64,000 nt of DNA from the NCBI RefSeq assembly GCF_004010195.1, contig NC_057749.1:12392591-12456590 (forward strand), written 5' to 3'. A model generated the notes under the pieces. The model was not told where the DNA came from, searched no databases, and saw only the letters and a list, made by a program, of their open reading frames with translations. The translations under genes and the position numbers were made by a program. How positions within the stretch are numbered: the first letter of the stretch is position 1; every line of letters starts with the position of its first letter. Source of the DNA: Chiloscyllium plagiosum (lineage: Eukaryota). This document shows positions 12,590-57,700 of this stretch, piece after piece.

Positions 12590-13583
12590 CTCATGGCAGG
12601 CAGTGACCAGTGGGGTACCGCAGGGATCAATACTGGGACCGCAGCTTTTTACAATATATGTTAATGATATAGAAGATGGTATTAGCAATAACATTAGCAA
12701 ATTTGCTGATGATACTAAGCTGGGTGGCAGGGTGAAATGTGATGAGGATGTTAGGAGATTACAGAGTGACCTGGACAAGTTAGGTGAGTTGTCAGATGCA
12801 TGGCAGATGCAGTTTAATGTGGATAAATGTATGATTATCCACTTTGGTGGCAAGAACAGGAAGGCAGATTACTACCTAAATGGATTCTGGATTAGTGGTG
12901 CTGGAAGAGCACAGGAGTTCAGGCAGCATCCGAGGAGCAGTAAAATCGATGTTTCGGGCAAAAGCCCTTCATATTCCTGATGAAGGGCTTTTGCACGAAA
13001 CATCGATTTTACTGCTTCTCAGATGCTGCCTGAACTGCTGTGCTCTTCCAGCACCACTAATCCAGAATCTAGTTTCCTGCATCTGCAGTCATTGTTTTTA
13101 CCTGCTACCTAAATGGAATCAATTTAGGTAAAGGGGCAGTACAGAGAGATCTGGGTGTTCTTGTACACCAGTCAATGAAGGTAAGCATGCAGGCACAGCA
13201 GGTAGTGAAGAAGGCTAATAGCACGCTGGCCTTCATAACAAGAGGGATTGAGTATAGAATGTTTCCGCTGATGGGTGAGTGCCGAACCAGAGGACACAGC
13301 TTAAAAAAAACGGGGTAGACCATTTAGTACATAGATGAGAAACTTCTTCACCCAGAGAGTGGTGGCTGTGTGGAGTGCTCTTCCCCAGAGGGCAGTGGAG
13401 GCCCAGTCTCTGGATTCATTTAAGAAAGAGTTGGATAGAGCTGTCAAGGATAGTGGAATCAAGGGTTATGGAGATAAGGCAGGAACAGCATACTAATTAA
13501 GGATGATCAGCCATGATCATATTGAATGGTGGTGCAGGCTCAAAGGGCAGAATGGCCTAATCCTGCACCTATTGTCTATTGTC
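12590..13583 (+). mobile_element. CR1 LINE 3' fragment (RT), internally deleted at ~13260 and interrupted by a fold-back insertion
   Basis: [20 protein letters not shown]...[11 protein letters not shown]...[10 protein letters not shown]; ends in a ctattgtctattgtc microsatellite tail. Confidence 0.92.
12885..13104 (+). mobile_element. Penelope-derived fold-back mini-element with hammerhead-ribozyme motif, 13-bp TSD
   Basis: ctacctaaatgga duplicated at 12872-12884 and 13105-13117. Inverted arms ~12884-12972 and 12980-13068. CTGATGA at 12977-12983 is followed by AGGGC-TTTT-GCAC-GAAAC. Confidence 0.85.
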
Positions 13584-14821
13584 ATCGTGGAGAGTGAAAT
13601 AACTCCATCTACCCTTTACAATGAAGTATGTGGGGGCTGTCTCCTTTCATAAAATGCAGGTATCCTTTTGGATTATTAATCCAGTATTCCAACTTGGTAC
13701 TTCATTTCTATTTAGAAAGGTTATTGAAAGTGGGACCTGAAGCAAAGATATGAACCTGAACCATTATTAAGCACTCCGCGATGTTAGCCAACTGGAGAAT
13801 GTTAATCTAAGGTTACCTTATTCTGAGGAAGTTTGGTACAATTAGAGAGCCAACATTTAGATGAGACATTAGACTGAAGTCTTCCCTTGCCTGTTGATTA
13901 CTTGAGAGTTGGTAGGGTTTGTCCCAGTGCCAATTCCAATGTGTCTCAAAGCAGCATCATTAAAATAGAAAATTATTACATATGTTTTCTTCATTAAAAC
14001 AGTGACTGTGCTGAAACAGCCACGAAAGAGCTTTGGATTTGATTTCACGTTCTGAAATGCTCTGGCGTGAACCCAACTTGATTATCTAATTACTATGATT
14101 GTACGGGTATGATGAGTTCCAGTCAAAAATAATAACCGAAAGTTGAAACTTCAATTAATTGTAACTTTTTAAAGGATCAGATAATGTCAGGCCCCTGGGT
14201 CAGGTCCAGGAGGGTGTGATGGGTGAGGGATAATGTACTAAGTTGAATCCTAAAACTAAATGTTGTCTGTGTTGGTCTTGTCCAGGTTTTTGCTGCAGTG
14301 CGTCTAGTCCTTCCTATTACCNNNNNNNNNNNNNNNNNNNNNNNNNNNNNNNNNNNNNNNNNNNNNNNNNNNNNNNNNNNNNNNNNNNNNNNNNNNNNNN
14401 NNNNNNNNNNNNNNNNNNNNNNNNNNNNNNNNNNNNNNNNNNNNNNNNNNNNNNNNNNNNNNNNNNNNNNNNNNNNNNNNNNNNNNNNNNNNNNNNNNNN
14501 NNNNNNNNNNNNNNNNNNNNNNNNNNNNNNNNNNNNNNNNNNNNNNNNNNNNNNNNNNNNNNNNNNNNNNNNNNNNNNNNNNNNNNNNNNNNNNNNNNNN
14601 NNNNNNNNNNNNNNNNNNNNNNNNNNNNNNNNNNNNNNNNNNNNNNNNNNNNNNNNNNNNNNNNNNNNNNNNNNNNNNNNNNNNNNNNNNNNNNNNNNNN
14701 NNNNNNNNNNNNNNNNNNNNNNNNNNNNNNNNNNNNNNNNNNNNNNNNNNNNNNNNNNNNNNNNNNNNNNNNNNNNNNNNNNNNNNNNNNNNNNNNNNNN
14801 NNNNNNNNNNNNNNNNNNNNN

Positions 14822-15100
14822 AAACTGAGATTAAGAGTGACAAAATCAGAACCATCAAAAACCTGGATGGAGAAGAAGGGACTGGAAGTGATGACAGTAC
14901 TCAGCAATAACTGAGGAAGAGTCTGGAATGCCCACAGGGTAATGGGTGGCAGTGACCTAACACCCAGAGGGAGATATTAGGGATAGAGAGGGATAAGGAG
15001 CTGCCTGTGAATACAACAGAAATTATTAAGAATAATGTCAAGAGATGGGGAATTCTTGGAGAGCACAATTGTGTTTGTTGGGAAAGTGAGGAAGAGAATC
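14822..15100 (-). mobile_element. Degenerate L2-like LINE fragment
   Basis: Purine-rich + strand whose reverse complement resembles L2 RT; appears to continue at ~16870-16940 after the CR1 pair. Confidence 0.4.
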
Positions 15101-15103
15101 TGG

Positions 15104-15870
15104 AACATAGAGATGTACAGCATGGAAACAGACCCTTCAATCCAACCCGTCCATGACGACCAGATATCCCAACCCAATCTAGTCCCACCTGCCAGCACCC
15201 GGCCCATATGCCCCCAAACCCTTCCTATTCATATACCCATCCTGATGCCTTTTAAATGTTGCAATTGTACCAGCCTCCACCACTTCCTCTGGCAGCTCAT
15301 TCCATATCCATACGACCCGCTGAGTGAAAAAGTTGTCCCTTAGGTCTCTTTTATATCTTTCCCCTCTCACCCTAAACCTATGCCCTCTAGTTCTGGACTC
15401 CCCCCACCCCAGGGAAAAGACTTTGTCTATATATCCTATCCAGGCCCCTCATGATTTTATAAACCTCTATACGCTCACCCTCAGCCTCCCACACTCCAGG
15501 GAAGACAGCCCCAGCTTGTTCAGCCTTTCCTTTTAGCTCAATCCTCCAATCTTTGCAACATCCTTGTAAATCTTTTCTGAACCCTTTCAAGTTTCATAAC
15601 AACATCTTTCCGATAGGAAGGAGACCAGAATTGCACGCAATATTCCAAAAGTGGCCTAATCAATGTCCGCAACATGACCTCCCAACTCCTGTACTCAATA
15701 CTCTGACCACTAAAGGAAAGCATACCAAAGGCCTTCTTTACTCTACTATCTCCCTGCGACTCCACTTTCAAGGAGCTCTGAACCTGCAGTCCAAGGTCTC
15801 TTTGTTCAGCAACACTCCCCAGCACCTTACCAGTAAGTGCTTAAGTCCTGCTAAGATTTGCTTTCCCAGA
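15104..15870 (-). mobile_element. 5'-truncated CR1 LINE (pseudogenised RT C-terminus plus 3' UTR)
   Basis: Minus ORFs RDLGLQVQSSLKV...RPLLEYCVQFWSP and FFTQRVVWIWNELP. Confidence 0.93.
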
Positions 15871-15909
15871 ATGGGAAACGCAGGGATGGAAGAACAAATG
15901 AGATTGGAA

Positions 15910-16864
15910 ATATGGATGCGAACATAAGAGGTACAGTTAGTAAGTTTGCAGATGACACCAAAATTGGAGGTGTAGTGGACAGCAAAGAGGGTTACCTCAG
16001 ATTACAACAGGATCTTGATCAGATGGGCCAATGGGCTGAGAAGTGACAGATGGAGTTTAATTCAGATAAATGTGAGGTGCTGCATTTTGGGAAAGCAAAT
16101 CTTAGCAGGACTTATACACTTAATGGTAAGGTCCTAGGGAGTGTTGCTGAACAAAGAGACCTTGGAGTGCAAGTTCATAGCTCCTTGAAAGTGGAGTCGC
16201 AGGTAGATAGGGTAGTGAAGAAGGTGTTTGGTATGCTTTCCTTTATTGGTCAGAGTATTGAGTACAGGAGTTGGGAGGTCATATTGCGGCTGTACAAGAC
16301 ATTGGTTAGGCCACTGTTGGAATATCGCGTGCAGTTCTGGTCTCCTTCCTGTTGGAAAGATGTTGTGAAACTTGAAAGGGTTCAGAAAAGACTTACAAGG
16401 ATGTTGCCAGGGTTGGAGGATCAGAGCTACAGAGAGATACTGAATAGGCTGGGGCTGTTTTCCCTAGAGCGTCGGAGGCTGAGGGATGACCTTATAGAGG
16501 TTTACAAAATTATGAGGGGCATGGATAGGATAAATAGACCAAGTCTTTTCCCTGGGGTCGGGGAGTCCAGAACTAGAGGGCATAGGTTTAGGGTGAGAGG
16601 GGAAAGATATAAAAGAGACCAAAGGGGCAACTTTTTCACGCAGAGGGTGGTACGTGTATGGAATGAGCTGCCAGAGGAGGTGGTGGAGGCTGGTACAATT
16701 GCAACACTTAAGAGGCATCTGGATGGGTAAATGAATAGAAAGGTTTTGGAGGGATATGGGCCGGGTGCTGGCAGGTGGGGCTAGATTGGGTTGAGATATC
16801 TGGTTGGCAGGGACGGGTTGGACCGAAGGGTCTGTTTCCATGCTGTACATCTCTATGACTCTAT
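15910..16864 (+). mobile_element. 5'-truncated CR1 LINE, RT C-terminus nearly intact
   Basis: [11 protein letters not shown] then the 226-aa ORF MEFNSDKCEVLHFG...FFTQRVVRVWNELP; ctctatgactcta tail. Confidence 0.95.
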
Positions 16865-16964
16865 ATCTTTGGAACTGGCAGAAATTGCGAATAGCTAGCA
16901 GTGAGAAAACTGAGGGAATGTGGTTGGATCAACAATGCAAAGTGATGAGTCATGTCACTGTTTT

Positions 16965-17200
16965 GCCGCTGTCCTGAGCGTGTTTAGTGGGAGATAGTGT
17001 AGAGGCATCTTCACTCTGTGCCTAACCCTGTGCTGTCCCTGTCCTGAGAGTGTTTTGATGAGAATGGTGTATAGGGAGCTTCACTCTGTATCTAGCACTG
17101 TGCTGTCCTTGGCCTGGGAGTGTTTGATGGGATGTTGTAGAGAGAGCTTTACTCTGTATCTAACCTTGTGCTGTACATGTCTTGGGAATGTTTGAAGAGA
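16965..17200. repeat. Degenerate ~69-bp tandem repeat (actctgtatctaaccctgtgctgtccctgtcctgggagtgtttgatgg...gtagagggagcttt), ~3.5 copies
   Basis: actctgt recurs at ~17013, ~17083 and ~17151. Confidence 0.8.
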
Positions 17201-17669
17201 TGATTACAAATAACTGAAATGTATTTTGAGTTGTGGTTCTGGGTTGCTGAGCCTTGTGTGATGATAGTTAACACATGTCAAGTGTTTGTTACTGGTCTGT
17301 TAGAAACCAAGTACCTTGCGTTTCTCTTTATTTTTTTGTTCAATTTTCTCACTTCTGTCCTGAAAATGCTGACTTCTGTAGGAATGAGTTCATGTACTGT
17401 GTCCAATGGACCAGTTGTATGAGAGTCTGGTCAGTGAGTGCAAAAAACAATTAGACTTGAGTGAGTTCCAATTGAATCTAATCTTTTTCTAACTCAATGT
17501 CTATACTGCCACAGAGTTGACTGGATAGTGATTGGAAGGGGCAGCCCTGAGATCTGGAAATGCTTCATGATGGTTATTGTATTTCTGCTATCACTCAAAT
17601 TCAGCACTTGCCAGGAATCAGATTGAGTTTAGGCTGAGTGAGACTGCAAACTATCACTGAGACTCACAC

Positions 17670-18169: not shown

Positions 18170-18306
18170 TAAAAAAACCTAAGAACTGCAGATGCTGAAA
18201 GTCAAAACAAAAACAGAAATTGCTGGAAAAAAACTCAGCAGGTCTGGCAGTATCTGTGAACAGAAAGAAAGTTAATGTTTCAAATCCAGTGACCCCTCTT
18301 GAGAAT
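18170..18306 (-). mobile_element. Penelope-derived terminal-repeat fragment with a decayed hammerhead motif
   Basis: gaactgcagatgctg...attgctggaaaaaaactcagcaggtctggcagtatctgtg...gttaatgtttc; tgaaactgt occurs on both sides (possible TSD). Confidence 0.65.
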
Positions 18307-19609
18307 AGTGAAACTGTTTCTTGGTTTTATGGAAATAGTTTTACTAAAACCATTTGGTTGGGTATCTTATCTTTTAGCTTTTGGCACAAATAATTGTTAG
18401 TGTTGTGGAAGTGTTAATGCTTTATCTGCTGTTGTTACTAGTCCAGTTACTGATTATATCTGGGCTGGGATAATTGTATAAATTTGCTGTTGCAGTGCCA
18501 GTTGCTGGTGGGTAGTTCTTGGTGTCAAAGAAACCTTGGCACCTATAAACTGAAAGAGATGCCACTTTCTTTCACTTTCTGCATCTGAGCAGTGAACTTG
18601 ATGCTGCAGGAATGTTGTGCTATTCTATAGGCAATGGAATCACTTTCTAAGTACAACGTTTTATAATCCTTTTTACACATAATTTCATCCCTCATTTTCC
18701 TGAAAATGCTCATGACAGATACCGCCACTTTGTCTGGGTTCTTTTTGTTTGAGTGTTGATGCTTTAGACAAATCTGATCCTTTTCACAACCAATATGAAT
18801 ATTGTATAACAGAAGTGACTGAGCATTGATTGGGAGTGAGACCAGAACCATGGAACTTGTTCCCCACCCTGTAAACCAACAACTCATTTCCTATTGGATT
18901 CAGGCTTGAACTGACTTGTTGCTGTTTAACATCCATGACATGGCTCTCCAGGAAAACCATCCGTGCACTTGTGAGCTGGTGTATCAACTGAAATGATCAT
19001 GCAGGTGTCACAGCACAGCATCAGGGAGAGAGAATGGTAGAACTGTTTAAACAAAAGATTTGCACAAGTGGAATCTATTTGCTGGGTATTGTTCCTATGA
19101 GTATAGGGAGGGTAAGCACACACACCTCCGATTGGGCATATGCTGCAGCTGTTTCATTCAGAGGTGTTAATGCTTAGGCAGTAACATGATAGCTACCTGC
19201 CGCGATAATAAAGGATAGCTGGGGATGGGATATTAACAGGATCGCTGAGTGACACGGGCACTGATGAGTTTCAGGTCCTGTTACTGATTAAAAAATCTGC
19301 TTCACCTCTTAGGAACCCTGCTCAAAACATGTGTTTCAAATTAATTTATAAGAAACCTCCAAGCTCTCTTATTGGTCAAGTGAGTAAAGGATAATCTGTT
19401 GTTGGATAAGTAAGAATATGCACCAGTTTTATTGAGAGATTGGTCTCAGCTTGGACAGCAATTGGGTGCTGTCTAGAATTGGAGGGAGGTGAGGCTGGGG
19501 ATGAATAAATGCTGATTCTGTCCCTGACTGTGGGCCCCTGCCAGGATGTTTCCTTGAGGATTAGGAAGCGGTTCCTGATTAGCTGCAATCTCCATAATAA
19601 ACCAAAATA

Positions 19610-26400: not shown

Positions 26401-27257
26401 CATTAGGATATTGTTTTGCTTCAAACTAATTTTTTAATGAAGTGTTATTTAAAACTGTAATTATTTTGTATCTTGTCGGCTTGTGGGTACCAATGACAGT
26501 GATTGTGAACTGTTTGCTGGATAGTACATGGATTCATACAGTAAGTGTTGATTATAACTGAATCCACTACTCTATATTTCAGTCCTGGTCATAAAATAAG
26601 TCTTTGGCAAACATTTATTGTTAGGAGATGGTACCTGCTGTTTTTATGATCAGGTGGAGGTTCCTGTGTCAGGAATGTGTTTCTGCTATCCAATGTAAAC
26701 TAATGAGACTTACAGAATGGAACTTCCTTTAGTTCTACTCTGGATCTGAATAGTATTAGTTGATTGTGAGTTGATAAAGGGTAGGGCATCTCTGGGGTTG
26801 GTTCCCTCCACTGCTGTTGTTTGTGTGTGCGTGCAGGTTGGGTAAAGAAAAGATTTGATTCTAGTCTGTGATAGCCAAAGAGAGATCCTGCTGAGGGTCG
26901 CTGTCCCGACCCACATTTGTCAACTCGTGATTCAAAAGAGTCAGAGGGTGGCAGGTATTTCTGAAACTGGGGTGGGTTTCAATCAGTAGCATCAGGAAAG
27001 GAGGGGATTTAGTTGCCAGGATGAAGGTCAACTGATTTTGTGAATTGTTTATGATACAGAGAAGTGGATACTGTAACCTGGAAACCATACTTCCTGTGAA
27101 TTGAGGTGTGGAATGGAGCATCTGCTCAGTTTATTTTTGGATGCACAGAATATTCTACATCTATTTAGAAGGCTGCTTAAAACCTCTGTGTGGGAAAGGC
27201 TGCAATTTAATGTTTTACATTTGAACAACCAATGTCTCTTCCTCTGAGTTTGTTTTA

Positions 27258-27541
27258 GATTAGATTCCCAACAGTGTGGAAACAGACCCTTCGGCCCTAC
27301 AAGTCCACACCGGCCCTCCAAAGAGTAACCCACCCAGACCCATTTCCCTCTGACTAATGCACCTAACACTACGGACAATTTAGCATGACCAATTCACCTG
27401 GCTGCACATCTTTGGATTGTGTGTGGAAACCAGAGCACCCGGAGGAAACCCATGCAGACACGGGGAGAATGTGCAAACTCCACACAGACAGTTGCCCGAA
27501 GCTGTGAGGCTGCAGTGCTAACCACTGAGCCACCGTGCTGC
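27258..27541 (-). mobile_element. tRNA-derived HE1/V-type SINE
   Basis: Reverse complement begins ggcagcacggtggctcagtggttagcactgcagcctcacag (A box), has the V-domain gtgtggagtttgcacattctccccgtgtctgc and an (aatct)n tail. Confidence 0.9.
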
Positions 27542-27969
27542 CTGTTGTAAGTAATCACACTAAGCTAATGTCTGGACTTAACACAGAAGTAACCTGGCTA
27601 GGCCTGGTTAGATTCTGTAATTTGTTTCTGAGCCCAAGTATAGAGTTCCATTGCTTCAGATGTTTGCATTGGTTCTGTGATTTAAATTCCTCCAGGAACA
27701 GTGAGGGAACCCAGGCTGTGAAATGGCTTGATCCTGTTGGTTTCGTTATTTGCTGCTTGAGGAGGCAGAGCAATGACTGACTCAGAAATTGGAGCCTGCT
27801 AATAGGCAGCCCAGGCAGATCCTTAGTGCAAGTGGAGAGGTGAATGTAGGGACCAGTTCACTAAGTAGGAGAGAGAAGGAAATTTGTGGAAGGATTTGGG
27901 TAAATAAGAAGTGATAGCAGGCAGAAGTTTATTGATTGTGAGGCTCGATTCTCCATTTACATGGAGCAA

Positions 27970-28350: not shown

Positions 28351-28359
28351 TATCTTGTT

Positions 28360-29823: not shown

Positions 29824-30230
29824 GGGGTGGCATGGTGACCTAGTGGTTAGCACTGCTGCCTCACGGTAGCGGGTACCGGGTTTGATTCCAGCCTTAGGCA
29901 GCGTGTCTGTGTGGAGTTTGCTTGTTCTCCCTGTGTCTCTGTGGGTTTCCACTGTGCTTCCTCCCACAGTCCCAAGATATGCAAGTTAGGTAGCTGACTG
30001 TGAACCAACAGCACTTAAAATTAGTTGATTTTCAGACACACACATGCACACACACACCAGTGCTCAATTATCCATGGTGTTCAGGGATGCTTAAGCGAGG
30101 TGTATTAGCCATGGGAAATGCAGGGTTACAGAGATTGAGTAAGGGGATGGATCTGGGATGCTCTCTGGAGGGTTGGTGTGGACTTGTTGGGCCGAATGGC
30201 TTGTTCCCACACTGTGGGGATTCTGTTCTA
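29824..30230 (+). mobile_element. HE1/V-type SINE with an internal inverted insertion
   Basis: gtggcatggtgacctagtggttagcactgctgcctcac, V-domain, and 3' gggccgaatggcttgttcccacactgtggggattct. Confidence 0.85.
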
Positions 30231-32086
30231 AAAAAGGTCTCACTGGGATTTCTTGTCTTATAGGGACCCTTGTTAAGGCTGCCAACAGAAATCTGTTTCT
30301 CTCTCATAGACAGGCTGAAATAACGAACAAAAAACAGTGAGAGAGACTGAAGTTGAGGTGTGTGTCTGAAAATCAGCTAATTTTAAGTGTTGTTTGTTCA
30401 CATTCAGCTATAGGCCCCTCCAGAAATCAGTCATTCATCCAGCTTTTGCTCTTGTTTTCTTTGGAAACACAGGCAGGCCTTTTGAACGATGCCAAGAGCC
30501 ACAGGCTGTGAGTTTATAACCTGGACACACGAGTCTCTCTGTGTGCGTGCTTCTCATGAAATGCCCATTTAGAAACCAGTGTGGAAAAAATTGCGTTTTG
30601 AGATCTTTTCAAATGCTGGGCAGCAATTAAGTAGTAAAGTGCTATTTATTTGAGATTGGCTGGCGGAAATGATCCTCAATACACTAATAAAGCAGTGAAG
30701 TAGATTAGCATATGACTTGGCTTTAGACATGTTTTGAGGAACTGTTACTTTATGAAGAAGAAAATATGTGAGGCCCTTGCAGTATTCCGTGTGAGGGAGG
30801 AATGTCTGGGTCGGCTGAATCTGGGTGGAAGGTCTTGGTTTGTGTTGGGAGTTTGAAGCTTTGTTTACAGCTGTGCAATTGTTTGAAGTTGCTGAAAGTT
30901 GGAACTTTTGGCAAATGCATTTTAAATCAACTCAAATTGTGAGCAGTTCAACGTGTACACTATAATTAAAAAATAGTTTTCGAGATGTGTGCTTAATTAG
31001 CTGACCAATATTGAAGGAGGGTTGGGCGGAGTAGATCATTCAGAGTTCCTGATCTCAGTGGCTGAAAACATTTGGCTGTTGAATGAAGACAGTATTGTGT
31101 TCAGCTCTGAACCTTTGTGGTTGAATGACTGGCTGATGTTGATGAATTGCTATTTGAATCGTAGTACAAGATTGCTACCTTCTAGTCCAGTATCTCAAGA
31201 AATGGGCAGGACGTTTGGAATGGACTTGGATAGAAATTGACATTTAAAATGTTTTGGAATCAAGTTGGCATCATCCTGATAGAGGCTGTGAATCAGCTGC
31301 ACAAAGTTATTGGAGTTTAACTGATTTTCAAGGAAGGATAATGAATCTTAGAGAAGTTTGCATGATTTGCACAAACTTGTTTTAAGTCAACATTGCAGCA
31401 GAAGCATCTTATGCAGAATCCTTAAAATAATTTTAATCTTGACAACAAGAAGTTTTTCAAAAACAATTTACACATATAAATATTCTCTGTTTCTCCCACA
31501 ATCCCTGTTCTCTTTCTCTTTGACCATTGGATTTTTTTTGGAGGTCTATTACGTAAACTGCAGAGATTGTTCTGCAGGTTATAGAGGCCTGTTTCTCAAC
31601 TATAGAGGCCTGTTTCTCAACAGCTTAAATGTTACTAGATGTGTAACAGTATAGTCACTGTTTATTCAGGTGAGGGCGTCTTACTGTCTGACTATGCACA
31701 ACACTATTTTCCCACCAGGGTAAGGCATCTATATGCCCCATTGTAGAGTGCAGTCAGGATCTTGTTGTGGAAGACTGTGGATAAATACATTACATGTATT
31801 AGTTGCTGATTTGTTGAAGATAGCTGTGGTGGGAATATTACCTGTGTGGTTTTCCAGAAAATACAAAGATTGGTTGAGAGACAACTCTAATTACAGGGCA
31901 TTGCTGCGTTATGCTCTCGTACAGTTGGACAGGCTGTGGAACTAGTGGGATTTGTGCTGTTGCCCTTATCGTGTGGAACATGAAATGTAGATACTGGAGG
32001 TGTGTGGGGGTTTAGAAGGGAGTGAGATTGCTTTTCCTGGAAACCATTCCCTTACAAATTATCATATTTAATGCAGCTTTTTGAAA

Positions 32087-32222
32087 TCAAAAGTCACATG
32101 ACGCTAGGTTATGGTGCTGCTCCGAAAGCTTGAGATTTTACTTAAATCTGTTGAACTATAACCTGGTGTTGTGTGACTTTTGACTTAGTCCACTCCAGTC
32201 CAACACTGGCGGCTCCACATCA
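32087..32222 (+). mobile_element. Penelope-derived fold-back fragment (same subfamily as 37989-38226)
   Basis: tcaaaagtcacatgacgctaggttat...gctccgaaagct...ataacctggtgttgtgtgacttttga. Confidence 0.7.
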
Positions 32223-32418
32223 CGGGCCTTTTGAAAACATTGTTGTATTTTTGCAATGATCCTATTTTGTCTGGTTGACCCAGAAGAGGGAGGGATGTTA
32301 TTGCCGTTGCATGTTGTAACATGGGCAAGCAGAAATGTTATCCTTGCAGCTGATGTGCATGAGAGTTGCAGGCGAAGGAGAACAAAATGTGAACAAGGCT
32401 GGGTCTGATGAAAGCATG

Positions 32419-32596
32419 AGCTGAAAATGTGTTGCTGGAAAAGCGCAGCAGGTCAGGCAGCATCCAGGGAACAGGAGAATCGACGTTTCGGGCATAAGCC
32501 CTTCTCCTGTTCCCTGGATGCTGCCTGACCTGCTGTGCTTTTCCAGCAACACATTTTCAGCTCTGATCTCCAGCATCTGCAGACCTCACTTTCTCC
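32419..32596 (+). mobile_element. Penelope-derived fold-back mini-element, 14-15 bp TSD
   Basis: tctgatgaaagcat(g) at 32404 and 32597. Inverted arms 32418-32479 and 32502-32563. The centre retains half a hammerhead (minus strand GAAGGGC-TTAT-GCCC-GAAAC-GTC). Confidence 0.88.
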
Positions 32597-34559
32597 TCTG
32601 ATGAAAGCATGTTGGCCTCTTGGGAATAGGAGGCTGGATTGGCTGAGCTTTATTTTTGTTAAGTAAAATTGCTATTCCAAGAAACAGATCTTCTGTTTAA
32701 TTTGTTTCATTATTCAATCATAAAAACTTAATTTGTTTTAAATAAAAAATCTGGTGGTGTAGGTGCTGAATGTAAACTGGACCTGGAGTAATTTGGGAAA
32801 TTCAGCCATGTGCCTCTTACACATTTAGTCAGTTTTATTTTATTGGTACCCACAAAGAAGCTGTCTTTTAACTAAATAGGACTTTTTCTTTTTCAATGAC
32901 ATTGCTGTTTGCTTGGGTATTGTTGCATGTTTCAGTGAGAGCTCCCTGGATGGAGCCTTGCCTGGGGCCTGGTTATAGTGTCACAATGGCTGGTACATTC
33001 ACTGACTGATGCAGAGGCTGAGTGAGGATCTGTGTGTCTGACATTTGAGCAAGGTTTCAGGATGGCAGCTGCTCTTTGCAACTTGTTTGAGAATCTCTCC
33101 CTTTGCTATGTCATTGTGTAAACCCAATCCCTGCGATAAGCATCTGTTCGGCTATTTATTGTTCATTCCTTAGGGCTGCACCCGCTGTTCCTCCTGAGAT
33201 TAACAGGAACCTAGTGCCTTGTTACTCTGCTGGCTTTTCGGATGATAGATTCCTAGATGACAAATGCAGCGAATCCGACTGTGGTAACCTAGTAACTACA
33301 TCCATTAATGACCTGACAATTCCTAACCTTTGACCTGGCCTCTTGGGAATATACAATGGTACTGGACTGTTAGTTGGGTTGTCATTTATTACAGAGCCAG
33401 GAAGAGAACTGATGATATAACCTCTGTCAGCCTCAAGTCCTGCCCTTTCCACTGAGGCAATGCATATTAAAGCATGAGAGAAACAAGGAAATATACAGAG
33501 GGTCTGTGTATTTGTAGCATGGAAAAGTGGCAATGTTATCCTTGCAGCTGATGTGCATGGGAGGTGCAGGCGAATGAGAACAAAATGTGAGCAAAGCTAG
33601 GTCAGGTAAAGGAATGTTGGCCTCTTGGAAATGGAGACTGGATTGAGTGAGCTTTATTTTCTTCAAATAGAATTGGTATTCCAGGAAACTGGTCCATATC
33701 TTCCCCCTCTCTGCTGACCACAGAGTGTCTATGAGCCCCCTCTCTGCTGACCACAGTGTCTGTTAAAGGAGGGGACTTTTTCACAGTCCTTTCGGCGTTT
33801 GGTGATGATATGATATTGTTGCTAACTGTAGAGTAATAGCAGTTCTACAATTTGGTAGCCGGTCATTTGCACTTAGGTCTTTGCTTGTGTTAGAAGTTCT
33901 TCTTTTTAGAGTCTTTTTCTCACTTGTAGAGGATAAGAAAGAGTGAAACCTGCATTCTTTTTAAACCCTGAGTTGGAGAGAAAGAGAGCAACCTGTCTTT
34001 GCTTGCAGGCCTCTTGGAGGTCTGAGTTCAACTGCCTTCCCACAACAGTGACAAACTGCAACTTAAAGAAGATCCAATGGCTACTGTTGGACAGATTTTC
34101 AATTCAAAGGCACCCGCTGATTGCTTGTCTCAGAAAGTATTAAATTCAGCTTCTCAAAATGTTACATGACCTTGTGAAATCAATCAGGGATGCCACACAA
34201 TTCCAGGTCTGATCTTCAGTTTGCCCAAAAAAAGCTAAGAAAAGGTAGAGAGAATGCTGGAAAAACCCAGCAGCTCTGGCGGCATCTGTGGAGAGAGAAA
34301 CAGAATTAACATTTCAAATCTGGTATGACTTCATCAGAACAAAGAGACACATCTGGTACATTCTTTGCAATCCAGCAGTGTTCAAATGTCTATTTTCGTC
34401 AGTTAATACTTCTGAAGGATATGTACTTGTACACTTTAAAGAGCTTTTCTGTTTAATTGGTTCTGTGATTGGGGAGGGGTTACTTGCTTAATGAAGATGT
34501 GAATTCAAGCCAACTACACAACTGAAGCAAGTGGTCGGGAGGTTACAGTCAGGAAGTCT

Positions 34560-36446: not shown

Positions 36447-37988
36447 AAAAGCCCTAGGAGTTGAACAGTGTCCTCCTGTTTCTAAGAGATGTTGCGATGA
36501 GTAGAGGGCTCATCATGTGATTTCAGTAAGACTTTAATATTGTTTGTTAAAATTGGTGCTATTCAGGAGCGAAATGAGGAAACATTTCACAAAAGGGGGA
36601 TGGAAATTTGGAAGTTTTTTTCTCCAAAGGGCTATGATTGCTGCAACAATTGGAATCTTTCAAAACTAGGATTTTGATCAGATTTAAATGTTATTTGAGA
36701 CAGGAGCAGGGTATGAGGCATGCCTTGGAACCTGCTGTGTTGCTCAGTTAGATCACCACCTTAACTCAATTTACCAGCCTTTGTTCCATATCTTATGTTG
36801 CCCTTAGTGAATAAAGATCAAAGTGTCCTGATTTCATTCAGTAGCTGATCACTAATCTTAAGGTAGTCTCCCAATTCTGGATTCCTCCCCTGGTGAAAAG
36901 AGGTTGTCTATATATAACCTGGTAAATTCATCAGTAACATTTAAAAAGACCTCAATCAAATATACTTCAATATCTGAAATTCAGCAAAATTCCCTCATAA
37001 TTTAACCCAGAATATTATTTTGAGGAATTTACATTGTACCCTTTCCAAGGTTAATATATCCTGCCTAAGATGTGTTAACTGTTAGTCTGAGTTTTGACTA
37101 GAGTTCTGTGCAACTCTCACAGTGCTTAATATCCAAGATTCCTTGAGATAAAGGCCATTGTTTAATTATGAGTTTGTTTCTTTTAAACTTGTTTTTATAT
37201 TATTTTGTTTAATTTATTTACTAGTTTTTAATGATGTTTAGGAGGTCATTTAGTGCAGTGGAAGTGTCCCTACCTCTGAGCTAGATGTTTCAGGTTTGAA
37301 TCCCACTCTAGCACTTGTTGCCCAAGGAGGTCAAGTTTATAATGTGTTCAGACAGGTTGAGTATCAAATTGAAAATCCTTCTAAAATACTCCAATTTCCC
37401 ACACTGGACCAAACAGTCTAACTGCGCCCCAACCTCAATCGCATAACCCTCATTTCCTCAACTGGATATGCCCTCCCCCATTAGTCACCCCAAATAATGT
37501 AACCTCTTCACACAATTGAGAGAGTTCCTGACTGGAAATAAATTGCAGCTCCTTCCATTGCAATCTGTAGCTCCCTACAACAATGCGCCTGTAAAATTGT
37601 TTGTTGCAACAATGGCTTGGGTCCTATGGGGGCACAATTAGCTGGATGGCTGGTTTTAATCAGATTAGTGCCAATAATTCCATTTTGAGATTTGATCTCC
37701 ATTTGGGCCAGGATGGATTTGGGACCTACTTCCTTGCTCTCCCTGTCCTGGATGTTATGGCACTGTGGGTTGGACCTGCCATTGGAAGTAGTGCTGAAAA
37801 ATAAGTCATGCATATATGAACGTCCAAATCTTTTCTCCTCCATAATGGGTAGTTTCTCACTGTTGCTCACTAGAGGTTACTCCAATTTATATTTCTCTGG
37901 ATATCAGACTTGCCTAAATTGAGTGCTGTCTGCCACACCGTCTTGGCCATTTATGGTTCAACACGTTACAACTGTCAGCTTTAATCAA

Positions 37989-38226
37989 GATGTGGAAGAC
38001 ACCGTGCTGGACTAAGGTGGACAAAGTTAAAAATCACACAACTCCAGGTTACAGTCCAACAGGTTTATTTGGAAGCACTAGGTTTCGGAGCACTGCTCCT
38101 TCATCAGGTGGTTGTGATGAAGGAGCAGCGCCTTCTTTATCAATCACCCGATGAAGGAGCAGCGCTCCGAAAGCTAGTGCTTCCAAATAAACCTGTTGGA
38201 CTATAACCTGGTGTTGTGTGATTTTT
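37989..38226. mobile_element. Penelope-derived fold-back mini-element with two opposed hammerhead motifs, 12-bp TSD
   Basis: agctttaatcaa at 37977-37988 and 38227-38238. Inverted arms with hammerhead motifs at 38076-38110 (-) and 38145-38179 (+). Confidence 0.88.
38145..38179 (+). ncRNA. Minimal type I hammerhead ribozyme motif (U4C variant)
   Basis: CAC-CCGAUGA-A-GGAGC-AGC-GCUCC-GAAAGC-UA-GUG. The opposite-strand copy at 38076-38110 keeps CUGAUGA but has GAAACCUA. Confidence 0.7.
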
Positions 38227-38699
38227 AGCTTTAATCAATATTACTTAAAGCTCTTCACTGTCATGTATAACCTTGAATGCTATTGTCTATTCCATCAACA
38301 TAAAAGCAATATACTGTGGATGCCAAAAACTGAAAATAAAAACTGAGAATCCTGGCAATACTTGGTGGGTCTGTCAATATCTGTGAGCAGAGAAACAGAG
38401 TAAGTCTTTCAAACAATGTTTCTGAGCATTGCAGGACCTTCTGGCTTTATTTAGATGGAAAGCTGAGAACCCAGAGCCTGAGGGAGTACCACATGTCACA
38501 TCCCCACCAATCAGAGACTATGGCCCCTTTAATTTCATTATCTGTTTCCTGTTTCAAAGCCAATCATCAGCCCAAGGGCCTCTGTGAAAAATCCCTCCTG
38601 AACATAACTTCGCTGCAAAACACTTCAGGATGTCCTGCAGTGAAAGAGTCTATGCAAGTGCATGCTTTGTTTTTTTTTTGCTATCTTTCATTTTACATT

Positions 38700-45029: not shown

Positions 45030-45043
45030 GTAACCATGGAAAC
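45030..45043. promoter_or_regulatory. RFX X-box consensus match GTAACCATGGAAAC
   Basis: Exact match to GTHNYYATRRNAAC; ETS-like CAGGAAGT ~50 bp upstream; non-repetitive context. Confidence 0.45.
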
Positions 45044-51016: not shown

Positions 51017-53952
51017 GCTGGAGGATTCTGGGTAATCCAAGATGGAGGACGGGAAAAATTTCTGGCTGTAACAGCTGCTCCTTTTTTGAGGTATTTTAGG
51101 TGCTGGATGTGATTTCCTTGATTTCCTTGAATTCCAGTAAACAGCAATTACTGTTTTGTATACCGTTGCATTGTTTTGGAACTTTGGATAAAAAAGTAAA
51201 ATCAACAGTTTTAAAAGGGAGAAGTACAGACAAAGGAAGCACATGGTGAAGTCAGTGCAGGAGAGAGAGAAAGAAAGAAACTGACACTGCCTTTGCTGTT
51301 TGAATTCATGGATCGCTGGACATTGGAGTGCATCCGGGAAAATTAACAAACAGTGAAATTCACAACTGATCTTGGAGGAACTGTTGGGTGAAGTTCACAA
51401 CACAGAAGCAGATAAGTGTATTGTTGTTTTAAGTGTGATCTGCAGTAGTGAGTAGAGTGGGTTCTTTCTTGATTATATGTTTTTGGAGATATATCTCTTG
51501 ATAAAATATAATCCACAACTATTAATTTAACCTGGGGCAGAGTTTGTAGAGGAATAAGACGGTGTTGTTTTCTGGGTCTGTAGATTGTGAAGAAGCAAAA
51601 TGGCCTTTAGTAGAGTGAAATGTGCTTCTTGTCAGATGTGGGAGTTTAAGATACAGCGGATTATATCTGCCATAAATGCTGTTGGTTGCGAATCTTATCA
51701 GATCGAATGGATTGATTGGAGAGACAGTTAGAAGCAATGAGAAATTTGCTGCAACAACAACAGTATGTGATGGATGGCAGTTATAGGAATGGGGGAAAGT
51801 CTCAGATTCAGTCACATAGATGGGTTAACTCCAGGAGAGGTAAGAGAGGTAGGCAGCTAGTGCAGGAGTCTTCGGTGGCTATACCCATTTCAAACAATTA
51901 TGCTGTTTTGGAAAATGTAGTGGGGGTGGTGGAGATGGATTCTCAGGGGAACGTAGCACGAACAGCCAAGTTTCTGGTGTTGATACTGGCTCTAATGCAA
52001 CAAGGGGTACATCGGGTTCCAAGAGATCAATTGTGTTTGGTGATTCTCTAGTCCGAGGTATAGACAGACATTTCTGTGGCCAGCAGCGAAAAAGCAGAAT
52101 GGTGTGTTGCTTCCCTGGTGCCAGGATCAAGGATGTCTCAGAGAGGGTGCAGAATGTTCTCACGGAGGAGAGGGGCCAGCAGGAGGTCATTGTACACATT
52201 GGAACCAACAACATTGGAAGGGAAAAGGTTGAGACTTTGAAGGGAGATTACAGAGAGTTAGGCAGAAATTTAAAAAGGAGGTCCTCAAGGGTAGTAATAT
52301 CTGGATTACTCCTGGTGCTACGAGCCAGTGAGGGCAGGAATAGGAGGATGAATGCATGGCTGAGGAGCTGGTGTATGGGAGAAGGATTAACCTTTTTTAG
52401 ATCATTGGAATCTCTTTTGGGGTAGACGTAACCTGTACAAGAAAGACGGATTGCACCTAAATTGGAAGGGGACTAATATACTGGCAGGGAAATTTGCTGG
52501 AGCTGCTCGGGAGGATTTAAACTAGTAAGGTGGTGGGGGGGGACCCAGGGAGATAGTGAGGAAAGAGATCGATCTGAGACTGATACAGTTGAGAACAGAA
52601 GTGAGTCAAACAGTCAGGGCAGGCAGGAACAAGGTAGGACTAATAAATTAAACTACATTTATTTCCATGCAAGGGGCCTAACAGGGCAGATGAACTCAGC
52701 GTATGGTTAGGAACATGGGACTGGGATATCATAGCAATTACAGAAACATGGCTCAGGGATGGGCAGGACTGACAGCTTAATGTTCCAGGATACAACTGCT
52801 ATAGAAAGGATAGAAAGGGAGGCAAGAGAGGAGGGGGAGTGGCATTTTTGCTAAGGGATAGCATTATAGCTGTGCTCAGGGAGGACATTCCTGGAAATAC
52901 ATCGAGGGAAATTATTTGGGTAGAAGTGAGAAATAAGAAAGGGATGATCACATAATTGGGATTGTATTATAGACCCCCTAACAGTCAGAGGGAAATTGAG
53001 AAACAAACCTGTTAGGAGATCTCCGCTATCTGTAAGAATAATAGGGTAGTAATGGTAGGGGATCTTAACTTTCCAAACATCGACTGGGACTGCCATAAGT
53101 GTTAAAGATTTTGATGGAGAGGAATTTGTTAAGTGTGTATAAGAAAAATTTCTTATTCAGTATGTGGATGTACCTACTAGAGAAGGTGCAAAACTTGACC
53201 TCCTCTTGGGAAATAAGGCAGGGCAGGTGACTGAGGTGTCAGTGGGGGAGCACTTTGGGGCCAGCCACCATAATTTTATTAGATTTAAAATAGTGATGGA
53301 AAAGGATAAACCAGATCTAGAAGTTGAAGTTCTAAATTGGAGACAGGCCAATTTTGACGGTATTAGGCAAGAACTTTCGAAAGCTGCTTGGGGGCAGATG
53401 TTGGCAGGTAAAGGGACGGCTGGAAAATGGGAAGCCTTCAGAAATGAGATAACAAGAATCCAGAGAAAGTATATTCCTGTCAGGGTGAAAGGAAAGGCTG
53501 GTAGGTATCGGGAATGCTGGATGACTAAAGAAATTGAGAGTTGGTTAAGAAAAAGAAGGGAGCATATGTAAGGTATAGCCAGGATGGATCGAGTGACTTC
53601 TTAGGAGAGTATAAAGGCAGTAGGAGTATACTTAAGAGGGAAATCAGGAGGGCAAAAAGGGGACATGAGATAGCTTTGGCAAATAGAATTAAGGAGAATC
53701 CAAAAGGTTTTTACAAATACGCTAAGGACAAAGGGGTAACTAGGGAGAAAATTGGGCCCCTCGAACATCAGCAAGGCGGCCTTTGTGTGGAGCCACAGAA
53801 AATGTGGGAGATACTAAACGAGTATTTTGCATCAGTATTTACTGTGGAAACGGATATGGAAGATATAGACTGGAGGGAAATAGATGGTGGCACCTTGCAA
53901 TATGTCCAAATTACAGACGAGGAAGTGCTGGATGTCTCGAAATGCATAAAGG
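51017..53952 (+). mobile_element. Near full-length CR1 LINE 5' part: 5' UTR, ORF1 (~51600-52525; Cys motif plus SGNH esterase) and ORF2 APE endonuclease, frameshifted
   Basis: ATG at 51600 gives MAFSRVKCASCQMWEF; GDSLVRG, VHIGTNNIG and DGLHLN esterase blocks; IAITETW, YYRPP, GDLNFP and PTREGAKLDLLLGN endonuclease motifs. Confidence 0.92.
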
Positions 53953-54342
53953 TTCAAAGTTTGGGAGAAGAATTGTAACTCGGGTGCTCGTTGTTGTGGT
54001 TCTGGTCGCCAAGCTGGGAATTTGTGTTGCAGATGTTTCGTCCCCTGTCTAGGTGACATCCTCAGTGCTTGTGAGCCTCCTGTGAAGCGCTTCTGTGATC
54101 TTTCCTCCGGCATTTGTAGTGTTTTGAATCTGCTACTTCCGGTTGTCAGTTCCAGCTGTCCGCTGCAGTGGCCGGTATATTGTGTCCAGATCGATGTGCT
54201 TGTTGATTGAATCAGTGGATGAGTGCCATGCCTCTAGGAATTCCCTGGCTGTTCTCTGTTTGGCTTGTCCTGTAATAATAGTGTTGTCCCAGTCGAACTC
54301 ATGTTGCTTGTCATCTGAGTGTGTGGCTACTAAGGATAGCTG
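53953..54342 (-). mobile_element. Penelope-like element 3' end: GIY-YIG endonuclease C-terminus plus terminal repeat with hammerhead motif, inserted in CR1 ORF2 and running into the gap
   Basis: QLSLVATHSDDKQHEFDWDNTIITGQAKQRTAREFLEAWHSSTDSINKHIDL (H..H.FDW, R...E, IN pattern of PLE GIY-YIG). Hammerhead motif at 54029-54068. Confidence 0.88.
54029..54068 (-). ncRNA. Minimal type I hammerhead ribozyme motif (PLE-type, probably decayed)
   Basis: Minus strand GCA-CUGAGGA-U-GUCACC-UAGACA-GGGGAC-GAAAC-AUC-UGC. Confidence 0.7.
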
Positions 54343-54999
54343 NNNNNNNNNNNNNNNNNNNNNNNNNNNNNNNNNNNNNNNNNNNNNNNNNNNNNNNNNN
54401 NNNNNNNNNNNNNNNNNNNNNNNNNNNNNNNNNNNNNNNNNNNNNNNNNNNNNNNNNNNNNNNNNNNNNNNNNNNNNNNNNNNNNNNNNNNNNNNNNNNN
54501 NNNNNNNNNNNNNNNNNNNNNNNNNNNNNNNNNNNNNNNNNNNNNNNNNNNNNNNNNNNNNNNNNNNNNNNNNNNNNNNNNNNNNNNNNNNNNNNNNNNN
54601 NNNNNNNNNNNNNNNNNNNNNNNNNNNNNNNNNNNNNNNNNNNNNNNNNNNNNNNNNNNNNNNNNNNNNNNNNNNNNNNNNNNNNNNNNNNNNNNNNNNN
54701 NNNNNNNNNNNNNNNNNNNNNNNNNNNNNNNNNNNNNNNNNNNNNNNNNNNNNNNNNNNNNNNNNNNNNNNNNNNNNNNNNNNNNNNNNNNNNNNNNNNN
54801 NNNNNNNNNNNNNNNNNNNNNNNNNNNNNNNNNNNNNNNNNNNNNNNNNNNNNNNNNNNNNNNNNNNNNNNNNNNNNNNNNNNNNNNNNNNNNNNNNNNN
54901 NNNNNNNNNNNNNNNNNNNNNNNNNNNNNNNNNNNNNNNNNNNNNNNNNNNNNNNNNNNNNNNNNNNNNNNNNNNNNNNNNNNNNNNNNNNNNNNNNNN

Positions 55000-55427: not shown

Positions 55428-56769
55428 CTACCTCCCCAGTCACTGACTCGATCTGAACCAATCATTTCATTACTAAGGTGTGTTAAGTGTCCCTAAGTTG
55501 ACTTTCCCGACTGGACAAATGCTCCATTTTCAAATCCAGCTGGGTCTAACTCTACAAGATTACCTGGTTTTGCCTCTGCTTTATTTGCATTTTAAAAAAT
55601 TCATTCTGAGGATCTGGAAGATGCTGGCTAGACCAGCATTTATTATCTAGCTGTAATTATTTTGGAGAATGTGGTATTGACAATATTTGGCATCAATGGA
55701 CAACTAAGAGTCATCCATGTTGTTGTAGATGTGGAATCATGTGTAGGCCATACAGGGTAAAAAGATGGCAAATTTCCTTCCCTCAAGGCCATAGTTAAAT
55801 CAGCTGGGCTTTTATGACTACCTGTTATTTTACATCATCTTTTTCAGTTGTACTTGACGTACTGGGTCCAATTCACAAATTTGAATTTGTACCTCCAGAT
55901 TATTGCCTAACCTTTTGTGTTCCTGTTCATTCCACTGCTATGATACAGCCTTCCCATGCTGAGATCCTCCAAGCTATTGTTCATTCTAGACAAAGTTATT
56001 CTAGTACTCTGTTGTTTGGCCTCACATCTACCATCTATAAACTTTAAGTCATCCAAAACTCTGCCAATTTTACATCAATTCACTGCAAACCACATTTGGA
56101 ACTATTTTGCTGTTCCTTCATTATCATTGGATCAAAATGCTGGAACTCTGTCCCTAACAGCAACATGGGTGTCCTGCACCACCTGCTCAAGGGCCGTTCA
56201 GAATACACAATAAATGCTGACCCAGCCAGAGACACCCACATCCTCTGAAAGAATTTTTTAAAAACTAAGCCCAGTTAGTCCATGCCTTTTGTATTTGCTG
56301 ACCTATCTCAGCTCCTGTTCTCAACATAACTTGACTTTATAATTTTTTTTGCATTTAAAGCCCTTCATAGCTTACCGTTTATCTCACTTATCCTGTGACT
56401 TACTGGGATCTTTCCAGCTCTTTCTATTCCCAATGGAACTATCTTTTCTCTATGTTGCTGTCATTCAGAAGCTGCTCTGTGCTTTCCTGCAGTTTGCTTA
56501 ACAAATATTTCCCACCTAATGGTCTAGTTTCTCTGTCATTCATTTGGGGGCAGAGTTGGGATTATTCCCTTGTAGTTCCTCTAATGTGATCAGACAAACA
56601 CAGACTATCCGCTTTTTAGTTCCTTGTTAGCTTTACATCATTTGCAGGAAAATTGTTAGTGTCTATTATAAAAGATGTAACAACAGAGCACTTGGAAGAT
56701 AGTGACAAGATAAGACAGTCAGCATAGATTTATGAAGGGGAGGTTGTACTTAACAAATCTGCTGGAGTA

Positions 56770-56898
56770 CTGCTCCTTCATCAGGCGGTTGCGCTCTGAA
56801 AGCTAGTGCTTCCAAATAAACCTGTTGGACTATTTCCTGGTGTTGTGTGGTTTTTAACTTTGTCTATGCCAGTCTAATACTGGCAACTCCAAATCATG
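56770..56898 (+). mobile_element. Penelope-derived fold-back fragment (37989 subfamily)
   Basis: ctgctccttcatcaggcggttgcgctctgaaagctagtgcttccaaataaacctgttggacta. Confidence 0.8.
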
Positions 56899-57560
56899 AA
56901 AAGAAAAAAGTGTGTTATATACAGGGGCAAATGTAACTTGGAGTGTGGAGTTCTGCCAAACACTTTTGTTGTGTTTCAATACCTGTGATATTAGTTAAGG
57001 AATAGTGGATGTTGCTTATTCACAGTGCTGGGAAATACCAACTGTGGAAAATGCTGAAATTCAGGACACACTCCTTCATTCACACTGTAGGTCAGTAGGA
57101 GGAAACCGGTTTGATGGAATAAGTTTATTTGCAAATTGTTAACCTTAATCTTGATTCATTTCTGTGACCGACCCCTCTTTATCTGTTCTCCATTATACAG
57201 CTCTATTATTCCATATTTTTAAATCTCTGATGCACTTATCTCTTTTTGTCTCTATTATGTGTTTATGTCTCACTTCCTTATATTTCATGTTTCTATTTAA
57301 TTCACTGCTTCTCTGTACCAGCTTTCTTTATTTCTGTAGTCCATTTGTTTCTTTCTGCTTTATGCTTTTCTATCCCTTCTTGTGGTCTACCCTTTCTCTC
57401 AGGCAGTTTCTCAAAATTAAGGACAACGTGCTTCCACTCTAGTTCAATAGGTTCTGAGCTGCCTGATGAATCCAACATATAACCTTCAAACTGTACATTA
57501 TTCAGGCCAGGTAATGCTTCAGAGTTTGGGATAGAAGGGTTGTCTGGTGGTTTTGAGATA

Positions 57561-57700
57561 GTGAGGACTGCAGATGATGGAACGTCAGAGTTGATAAAGT
57601 GTAGAGATGGATAAAGCACAGGAAGTCAAGCAGCCTCAGAGGAGCAGGACTGATGAAAGGTTCAGATCTGAAATGTCGTCTCTCCTGCTTCCTCTTTGAT
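57561..57700. mobile_element. Decayed Penelope-derived fold-back fragment
   Basis: gtgaggactgcagatg...gaggagcagga-ctgatgaaaggttcagatctgaaatgtcg...tcctgcttcctc. Confidence 0.65.

Follow-up and report, generated by a model that had tools for sequence, protein, structure and literature searches.

Fold-back insertions with hammerhead motifs as probable products of Penelope-like elements in a shark genome

Introduction

In L1 retrotransposons, both target strands can act as primers (twin priming), which gives rise to an internal inversion flanked by a target-site duplication (TSD). For endonuclease-bearing (EN+) Penelope-like elements (PLEs), complex insertions are known in which an inverted, 5′-truncated pseudo-long terminal repeat (pLTR) is accompanied by a 30–40 bp tail and a TSD, as described in the accessible parts of PMC3846280, PMC8557442, PMC2377424 and PMC8969392. 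In the 64,000-nucleotide stretch of the shark Chiloscyllium plagiosum analyzed here (the window; assembly GCF_004010195.1, contig NC_057749.1, positions 12,392,591 to 12,456,590), short fold-back insertions bearing hammerhead ribozyme motifs are real, abundant and explained in outline as PLE insertion products.

The Anolis Poseidon element PAc cleaves the two target strands, extends each of them and starts reverse transcription (RT) from two adjacent internal sites, whose spacing corresponds to the tail; it is a predicted dimer and requires RNA up to +172 of its open reading frame (ORF), and in the main text of that work neither fold-back products nor a poly(A) site is discussed (PMC11167929). 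The minimal type I hammerheads of PLEs combine a short helix I, an extra base between positions 9 and 10.1 (before helix II) and a four-base palindrome (15.2–16.2) replacing helix III, and "dual" motifs on opposite strands, 100–700 bp apart and derived from truncated PLEs, are reported in Schistosoma (PMC4209133, accessible part). Animal non-LTR retrozymes are by definition head-to-tail tandem units with a complete hammerhead in each (bioRxiv 10.64898/2026.07.22.740005, accessible part); further literature for comparison is available in part (PMC6155905, PMC6765202). The available text of PMC8557442, PMC4209133 and PMC11167929 names two open questions: how the tandem and inverted arrangements of PLEs arise, and whether cutting by minimal hammerheads takes place in vivo.

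Results

Three fold-backs of 178–238 bp (E1–E3), with arms 92–98% alike, are present where the original prediction had placed them. E1 (12885–13104) consists of a tail-less antisense arm (12885–12972) and a tailed sense arm (approximately 12973–13104), with hammerhead position C3 at 12977 and the tail at 13070–13104; its arms share 94% identity over 95 nt. E2 (32419–32596) joins a tail-less arm (32419 to about 32504) to a tailed arm (about 32502 to 32596, tail 32563–32596), with 98% identity over 62 nt. E3 (37989–38226), whose sense is the minus strand, comprises a tailed arm (37989–38116), a private centre (38117–38140) holding a short abortive repeat, and a tail-less arm (about 38141–38226), with 92% identity over 92 nt; C3 lies at 38107 and the predicted cut between 38079 and 38078. 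The proposed TSDs are exact in all three (plus strand): 13 bp in E1 (12872–12884 and 13105–13117), 15 bp in E2 (32404–32418 and 32597–32611) and 12 bp in E3 (37977–37988 and 38227–38238), and none of 1000 random boundary pairs gave 11 exact bases, the best reaching 10. The boundaries of E1 are independently backed by its host, the RT frame of a CR1-type long interspersed element (LINE), whose peptide resumes beyond the insertion, and those of E2 by an empty paralogous site (33512–33689) that matches both flanks. The expected one-sided tail is found in four of four scorable copies, measuring 35 nt in E1, 34 nt in E2, 34–40 nt in E3, where the arm overlaps the TSD, and 35 nt in the decayed copy E4.

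Two likenesses of the TSDs were also observed. Next to the tail-less arm, the TSD is similar to the element's following 6–7 bases, with 5 of 6–7 matching (12878–12884, 38227–38232) and just 1 base in E2, hinting at primer-template microhomology. The E2 TSD (32404–32418) resembles the 5′ hammerhead box (CTGATGAA), which the empty paralog at about 33600 does not; this may reflect chance or an older remnant.

Three further copies retain two opposed arms. E4 (32084–32225) has a tail-less arm of 28–32 nt, a tailed arm (32118–32221) that begins in stem II, and a weak TSD (8 bp exact, or 11 bp with one mismatch). In E5 (56764–56899), an inverted 5′ half of the hammerhead (56764–56791, −7 to +20) is joined to a tailed arm starting at +16, whereas E6 (57555–57691), an old copy, shows a tailed arm (57555–57649) and a short opposite arm with a hammerhead core (57650–57691). 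A BLAST census with eight window arms returns eleven loci, compared with 1 match in 20 shuffled windows, which fall into family A (E1, E2, E6), family B (E3, E4, E5), family C, related to family A, and family D, a PLE end. Family C comprises four single arms: 579–665 (plus strand, decayed), 18180–18312 (minus, with degenerate hammerhead and tail), 34245–34345 (minus, with a CTGATGA core and no tail seen) and 38313–38413 (minus, decayed). The seven decayed relatives listed in the original prediction are thus all homologous arms, but for those placed at 555, 18170, 34245 and 38320 no fold-back partner was found. An inverted partner, always head-to-head, occurs in 6 of the 10 ORF-less loci (E1–E4 and the split copies at 56764 and 57555). 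The anticipated density of about one per 6 kb holds for the eleven loci in 62,366 called bases; because four single arms have no detected partner, fold-backs proper amount to about one per 10 kb. The arms of E1 are 94% alike but only 82–84% like those of E2, which indicates that both arms of one element derive from one subfamily.

Long inverted arms, the absence of an ORF and a high copy number would also suit miniature inverted-repeat transposable elements (MITEs) of a DNA transposon with terminal inverted repeats resembling PLE ends. The TSDs, however, vary (12, 13 and 15 bp), at odds with the TSD rules generally accepted for DNA transposons, the repeat ends about 35 nt before one terminus, the interior is variable, and the architecture is that of a hammerhead. 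Owing to the one-sided asymmetry and the variable TSD we give the MITE reading practically no credence.

The E3 long arm with 30 nt of the E3 centre (family B) was taken as reference and compared with four of 24 listed sequencing runs, namely three DNA runs from three species and one poly(A)-selected RNA run (about 2% of this run was read). In the DNA runs 37,772, 41,075 and 36,491 contigs align to the arm, together with 3,523 RNA reads. Among the best 24 of 733 loose-end rows, to which all statements on loose ends refer, two outer ends recur in every DNA run. The first is the tail, with 474, 526 and 557 records at about 38004, where the E3 tail diverges and the consensus continues for about 17 nt. 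The second lies at 38023–38026 (358+352, 456+362 and 466+478 records), beyond which the flanks are AT-rich and non-conserved (agreement 0.34–0.38). The centre behaves in the opposite way: in run X1 the depth falls from 2.5–2.8 million at 38045–38074 to 10,322 (38117–22), 4,860, 962 (38129–34) and finally 0 (38135–46), and the raw RNA reads drop alike (980+119, then 0.17+0.5, then 0). Ten opposite-strand joints, among the best 15 of 85 joint rows, are all different and are carried by 1–5 contigs per run each. Sharing of private variants between the arms of E3 is uninformative: the long arm departs from the majority at 4 positions of the overlap, and at each of them the short arm carries the majority letter. 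Collectively, outer ends confined to two positions with about 35 nt between them, together with centres that vary from copy to copy, agree with what the published pattern of an inverted pLTR with tail would predict, answer the boundary-recurrence check in favour of independent events, and support the first of the two options originally offered, that of minimal PLE insertion products.

The second option, a non-autonomous retrozyme-like system, implies an amplifying fold-back family, either retrozyme-like or resembling short interspersed elements (SINEs), in which the entire hairpin would be transcribed, self-cleaved and re-inserted. The high copy number in three species and the shared outer ends agree with such a family. 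Against it stand the E3 centre, with practically no sister copies in the four runs, so that amplification is largely refuted for E3; the centres of E1–E6, which differ in 6 of 6 window copies; the hammerheads, intact in none of the six; the lack of head-to-tail tandem units among the eleven window loci, where all pairs are inverted; and, among the matches listed, the metagenome centres that do repeat, which came with shared flanks. Taking this into account, amplification as a hairpin is very improbable.

The expected core of CTGANGA, stem II and GAAA is borne out at the level of families, in the E3 long arm, in the majority letters of family B and in family D, and the helices differ among families yet still pair; individual fold-backs mostly carry broken ribozymes. 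One arm of E1 lacks C3-U4 and the other has a stem II mismatch; E2 lacks the CUGA box entirely, the nearby CTGATGA belonging to its TSD; in E5 the ribozyme is split over the junction; and E3 is nearest to intact, with U4>C in one arm and a single change at 15.2 in the other. As the four-base palindrome, E2 has ACGT and family B has AGCT (96% of the run X1 depth at 38082); the palindrome is lost in E1, the E3 long arm and D. Among the matches listed, it is present in 62 of 81 distinct metagenome motifs, where the search pattern let 2 of 6 dinucleotides be palindromic. The third subfamily proposed for the fold-backs, with stem II GTCACC/GGGGAC, turned out to be the single pLTR of the PLE end at 54065. 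Strict core matches number 2 in the window against 0.23 in shuffles (maximum 2), and a scan allowing one mismatch gives 13 rows against 4.2 (maximum 8). In the Rfam search of the window no hammerhead appears among 12 matches up to E 5, the best being sub-threshold microRNA models; in monomer folding of seven short segments the hammerhead is never the minimum-energy fold, though some helices formed; and the hammerhead pattern has 0 matches in viral contigs. As a weak lead, the segment after the hammerhead may pair with the tail in a conserved stem in several copies, with z below −2 in just 2 of 11.

A hard stop just 5′ of the hammerhead, considered since none of the arms of E1–E6 goes beyond C3 by more than about 10 nt, was rejected: 325–419 contigs per run extend upstream at each of 38109 and 38116, and outside the window the hammerhead arm of fold-backs extends up to 30–40 nt upstream, in one case at least 120 (among the matches listed). 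At 38109, 325–341 contigs per DNA run carry a second upstream sequence type, complementary to the region of the hammerhead cut site, which from its sequence is possibly a subfamily with built-in inhibitory pairing.

The GIY-YIG Penelope element reported for the window corresponds to a 391 bp Poseidon-type PLE 3′ end (family D, 53952–54342, minus strand); it is cut by an N gap (54343–54999), the GIY and YIG motifs are out of view, and its identity is assigned by homology. The C-terminal 97 codons, with one in-frame stop near 54135, run into the pLTR hammerhead (C3 at 54065) and end inside it; a new ATG lies at 54059, where stem II starts, and the insertion ends 108 nt after this ATG. Family D is inserted in a CR1-type LINE, and its 5′ part is lost in the N gap. 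Across the stop, 54342–54052 (minus strand) shares 87% identity with the C-terminal 97 residues of protein P0001, and the nearest proteins are labelled Chiloscyllium, Hemiscyllium, Stegostoma and Rhincodon, which points to a carpet-shark-like genome. RT and GIY-YIG-type motifs are visible in P0001 and its relative P0007; in Pfam, RVT_1 falls below the curated cutoff in the former, the latter has a weak GIY-YIG match (E 0.027), and the 69-residue window piece matches no family. As D and the fold-backs belong to different families, D is at most a candidate driver of them. A further PLE candidate, 31009–30821, was rejected on account of its weak tblastn match (E 0.19). As a separate observation, the host proteins P0002, P0003, P0008 and P0013 of sharks (MAP3K7, NT5DC1, CUEDC2 and WBP2-like isoforms) include the C-terminal segment of PLE D, which represents either exonisation or gene-model artefacts.

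In loci outside this genome, family B matches L061 and L029 over 35 nt at 91%. L061 has a B-like hammerhead with a downstream AATAAA, 755 nt behind an ORF that is GIY-YIG-like by pairwise comparison and has no Pfam match; among four outside ORFs, Pfam places GIY-YIG above the cutoff in one, below it in one and in neither of the other two. Long frames begin 7–105 nt behind the hammerhead start in L035, L019, L036, L052 and L075, and L035 has a GIY-YIG frame upstream as well, that is, a tandem PLE junction. These links bear on a further possibility, that short non-autonomous PLE derivatives (pLTR with little flank) served as RNA donors for families A–C and were mobilized in trans, each insertion having its own junction. 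By tblastn, all ten A–C loci in the window are devoid of ORF sequence, non-autonomous PLE derivatives such as Chlamys MRC1 and the retrozymes are described (in sources accessible in part), and upstream loose ends in the DNA runs agree by just 0.42–0.49 (best 24 of 733 rows). Conversely, the pLTR of L061 stands behind an ORF, hundreds of contigs extend upstream of the arm, and internal priming near the RNA 5′ end would make ORF-less products from autonomous RNAs too; short donors are therefore considered doubtful.

The scan of metagenomes for hammerheads yields at least 120 loci; the counts that follow are among the matches listed. None matches a window arm beyond 31–35 nt of the hammerhead, and an inverted arm accompanies 25 of 123 matches. 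Of 13 distinct fold-back loci in DNA of unrelated eukaryotes, 5 have a clean TSD (9–15 bp) together with a one-sided tail (28–47 nt), so that the fold-back build is general to PLEs. Where centres repeat, four groups have both flanks in common and two pairs have one, and such repeats are consequently read as the same locus plus misassembly.

The RNA run reveals a polyadenylation signal in the family B pLTR (38049–38069, minus strand), with AATAAA at 38069–38064, poly(A) sites at 38053 and 38049, 11 and 15 nt beyond it, and a GU/U-rich stretch downstream. Poly-T loose ends with a median of 67–70 nt occur in 761 RNA reads at 38049 and 892 at 38053 (1,653 of 3,523); none appears in the DNA runs among the best 24 of 733 loose-end rows. 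At 38068, 904 of 2,579 plus-column reads have a letter yielding ATTAAA, and the minus-column depth has no step at the poly(A) sites. Family B copies appear to act as poly(A) sites. Divergence from E3 is greater in the RNA reads (under 90% in 2,401 of 3,523) than in the DNA contigs (13,831 of 37,772), so that the reads probably stem from many old copies under host transcription, not from an active element. Since both RT starts lie downstream of the poly(A) site, priming on a polyadenylated RNA would seem to be confined to its 5′ pLTR.

The second lead concerns the predicted cut. In seven of the ten inverted joints (among the best 15 of 85 rows) one side falls at 38075–38078, 0–3 nt 3′ of it, and the tailed arms of E2 and E6 begin 2–7 nt 3′ of their own predicted cuts (2–5 nt in E2, whose tail-less arm extends into the hammerhead up to +5; about 5–7 nt in E6, where this is the inner end of the arm). 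A CAC microhomology lies at the same place, and 70 joint rows stand beyond those considered, both of which count against this lead. There is no raw-read depth step at the cut (447, 416, 381, minus column). Poly(A)-primed reads are blind to a 25–29 nt 3′ cleavage product. Outside, among the matches listed, 1 of 13 arms starts at the cut (L078, +29) and L102 at +23 to +30; for PAc, RNA-seq shows no ends at the cut, and cleavage is dispensable in vitro (PMC11167929). The clustering of junctions is accordingly only a lead towards putative self-cleavage.

Regarding the surroundings, the window is rich in CR1-type LINE pieces and contains three N gaps. The last coding exon of an ADP-dependent glucokinase-like gene (PF04587) occupies 9006–9572. 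Upstream of the LINE hosting the PLE end, an SGNH/GDSL-like frame (51853–52425) has a match below the cutoff; we take it to be of the type typical of CR1 ORF1. Two 3′ pieces of CR1-type LINEs lie head-to-head at 15106–16868 (779 nt at 89%) with no clear TSD, and represent two insertions or one old twin-primed insertion. Another dispersed repeat family of SINE-like size is found at 2821–3000, 27253–27542, 29824–30233, 35395–35726 and 36185–36394, and short tandem arrays at 3836–4004 (period about 33 nt) and 16958–17202 (period about 70 nt). Other inverted pairs, at 29991–30410 (53 nt, 92%) and 55590–56263 (60 nt, 78%), do not match the hammerhead arms.

Discussion

The most satisfactory explanation, which we consider probable with its mechanism included, is that each fold-back is a separate, dead-on-arrival insertion by an EN+ PLE. 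The GIY-YIG domain would cut both target strands 12–15 nt apart in AT-rich DNA, as the TSDs observed here and the double cutting by PAc in vitro suggest. Each 3′-OH would then prime RT inside the RNA of the pLTR and ORF start, one at a distal and one at a proximal start; the gap of about 35 nt between the starts would become the one-sided tail, an equation taken from PAc and applied to the two fixed ends seen in the runs. Both cDNAs would halt after approximately 30–130 nt, within the hammerhead region or immediately 5′ of it, and would be joined head-to-head at a variable point, as the observed centres indicate, sometimes through microhomology or with short extra pieces; gap filling would finally produce the TSD. 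That the hammerhead occupies the axis reflects its place in the 5′ part of the pLTR and not a requirement of the fold-back. The one-off nature of the copies also fits, since a fold-back ends at the distal start and would miss the downstream RNA that PAc needs.

That the fold-backs are independent PLE products is held with high confidence; given this, priming on two strands is somewhat favoured over snap-back self-priming. The latter shares the PLE origin and the independence of the events: the first cDNA would fold back and copy itself, and endonuclease resolution would leave the one-sided tail. Palindromes seen at inverted junctions led to its proposal for the PLEs of Adineta (PMC3846280), and the tail has been attributed to EN-mediated resolution (PMC8557442), in the accessible parts of these works. 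Self-priming also accounts for the strict one-tail asymmetry, and E1, E3, E4 and four of five clean outside loci (among the matches listed) are compatible with it, although these do not discriminate. The discriminating copies point the other way. Self-priming predicts a loop derived from the tailed arm, whereas in E2, E5 and E6 (3 of 6) and in the outside locus L083 the loop comes from the tail-less arm, which includes 5′ sequence that the tailed arm does not have; in E2, E5 and E6 each arm has sequence that the other lacks, an outcome that simple snap-back copying of the tailed arm is unable to produce. Furthermore, extension by PAc takes place on both strands, and its two RT starts agree with the tail. 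Self-priming is considered rather unlikely.

Several points weigh against the preferred reading of separate two-strand insertions. De Bruijn contigs break at hairpins, and the locus of E3 itself is unspanned; the run evidence covers family B only, with just the best 15 of 85 joint rows and the best 24 of 733 loose-end rows. The TSD of E4 is weak, as mentioned above, and those of E5 and E6 are not above chance. Loss of sequence from the axis after insertion could imitate the two-primer signature, which is seen in 1 of 5 clean outside loci (L083, among the matches listed). For PAc, use of the start sites is reported not to differ between strands, which leaves the strict one-tail asymmetry (4 of 4 here) without an explanation. 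Within this genome no ORF link was found for families A, B and C; for A and C no link was found at all, and B is tied just to its relative L061.

A more speculative extension, which we regard as unlikely, would interpret the fold-backs as fossil strong-stop products of a family B pLTR laid out like retroviral R-U5. With the poly(A) site 25–30 nt upstream of the nearer RT start, a polyadenylated transcript would be primable only in its 5′ pLTR. The short cDNA would run off the RNA 5′ end, sometimes an end created by hammerhead cleavage, and two such cDNAs, one per target strand and perhaps held by a hammerhead dimer, would join into a hairpin; a jump to the 3′ repeat instead would give the pLTR-ORF-pLTR element. 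If this were true, thousands of junctions would constitute genomic evidence for in vivo PLE ribozyme cleavage and strand transfer, and poly(A) signals would have been seeded on both strands throughout shark genomes.

Minimal products of this kind are very numerous in shark genomes, and each packs its TSD, its two priming sites and its join into less than 250 bp. As every copy records these three features, two-strand priming versus self-priming, and termination at the cleavage site, are testable by an assembly census. The fold-backs are also an annotation risk, being easily mistaken for MITEs or microRNA hairpins.

Comparison with Known Systems

The structure of an inverted pLTR plus tail is already published, which makes the finding a modest one; the poly(A) site and the cut-site junctions are leads not found in the literature searched. 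No work on shark fold-backs, PLE twin priming or a pLTR poly(A) signal was found in that search, which judged mostly by title and start of abstract and lay outside subscription papers and repeat databases.

In common with the EN+ PLE complex insertions, as far as the accessible texts describe them, the fold-backs have a head-to-head inverted copy, a one-sided tail, a TSD and a hammerhead-bearing pLTR; they differ in having no ORF between the arms and a very high density. Their TSDs measure 12–15 bp, compared with 8–10 bp in Adineta (PMC3846280, accessible part). The hammerheads share with the minimal type I PLE motifs the short helix I, the extra base, the palindromic 15.2–16.2 and the mostly dispersed copies; in the accessible part of that work (PMC4209133), opposite-strand pairs are not dissected as single TSD-bounded events and sharks are unmentioned. 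Like the non-LTR retrozymes, as the available text presents them, the fold-backs are ORF-less, PLE-derived and equipped with a type I hammerhead, but they are head-to-head and their hammerheads are mostly broken.

L1 twin priming differs in that here the arms overlap almost fully, which implies two RNAs or two passes, and priming takes place at two fixed internal sites.

The Anolis element PAc has in common with the fold-backs two RT starts bounding the tail, AT-rich targets and the extension of both strands (PMC11167929). Its ORF starts at stem II and its RT starts lie at +111–118, closely resembling family D, with its ATG at stem II and its end at +108 (PMC11167929). Families A–C, unlike PAc, have no ORF start at stem II, as judged by eye in decayed copies.

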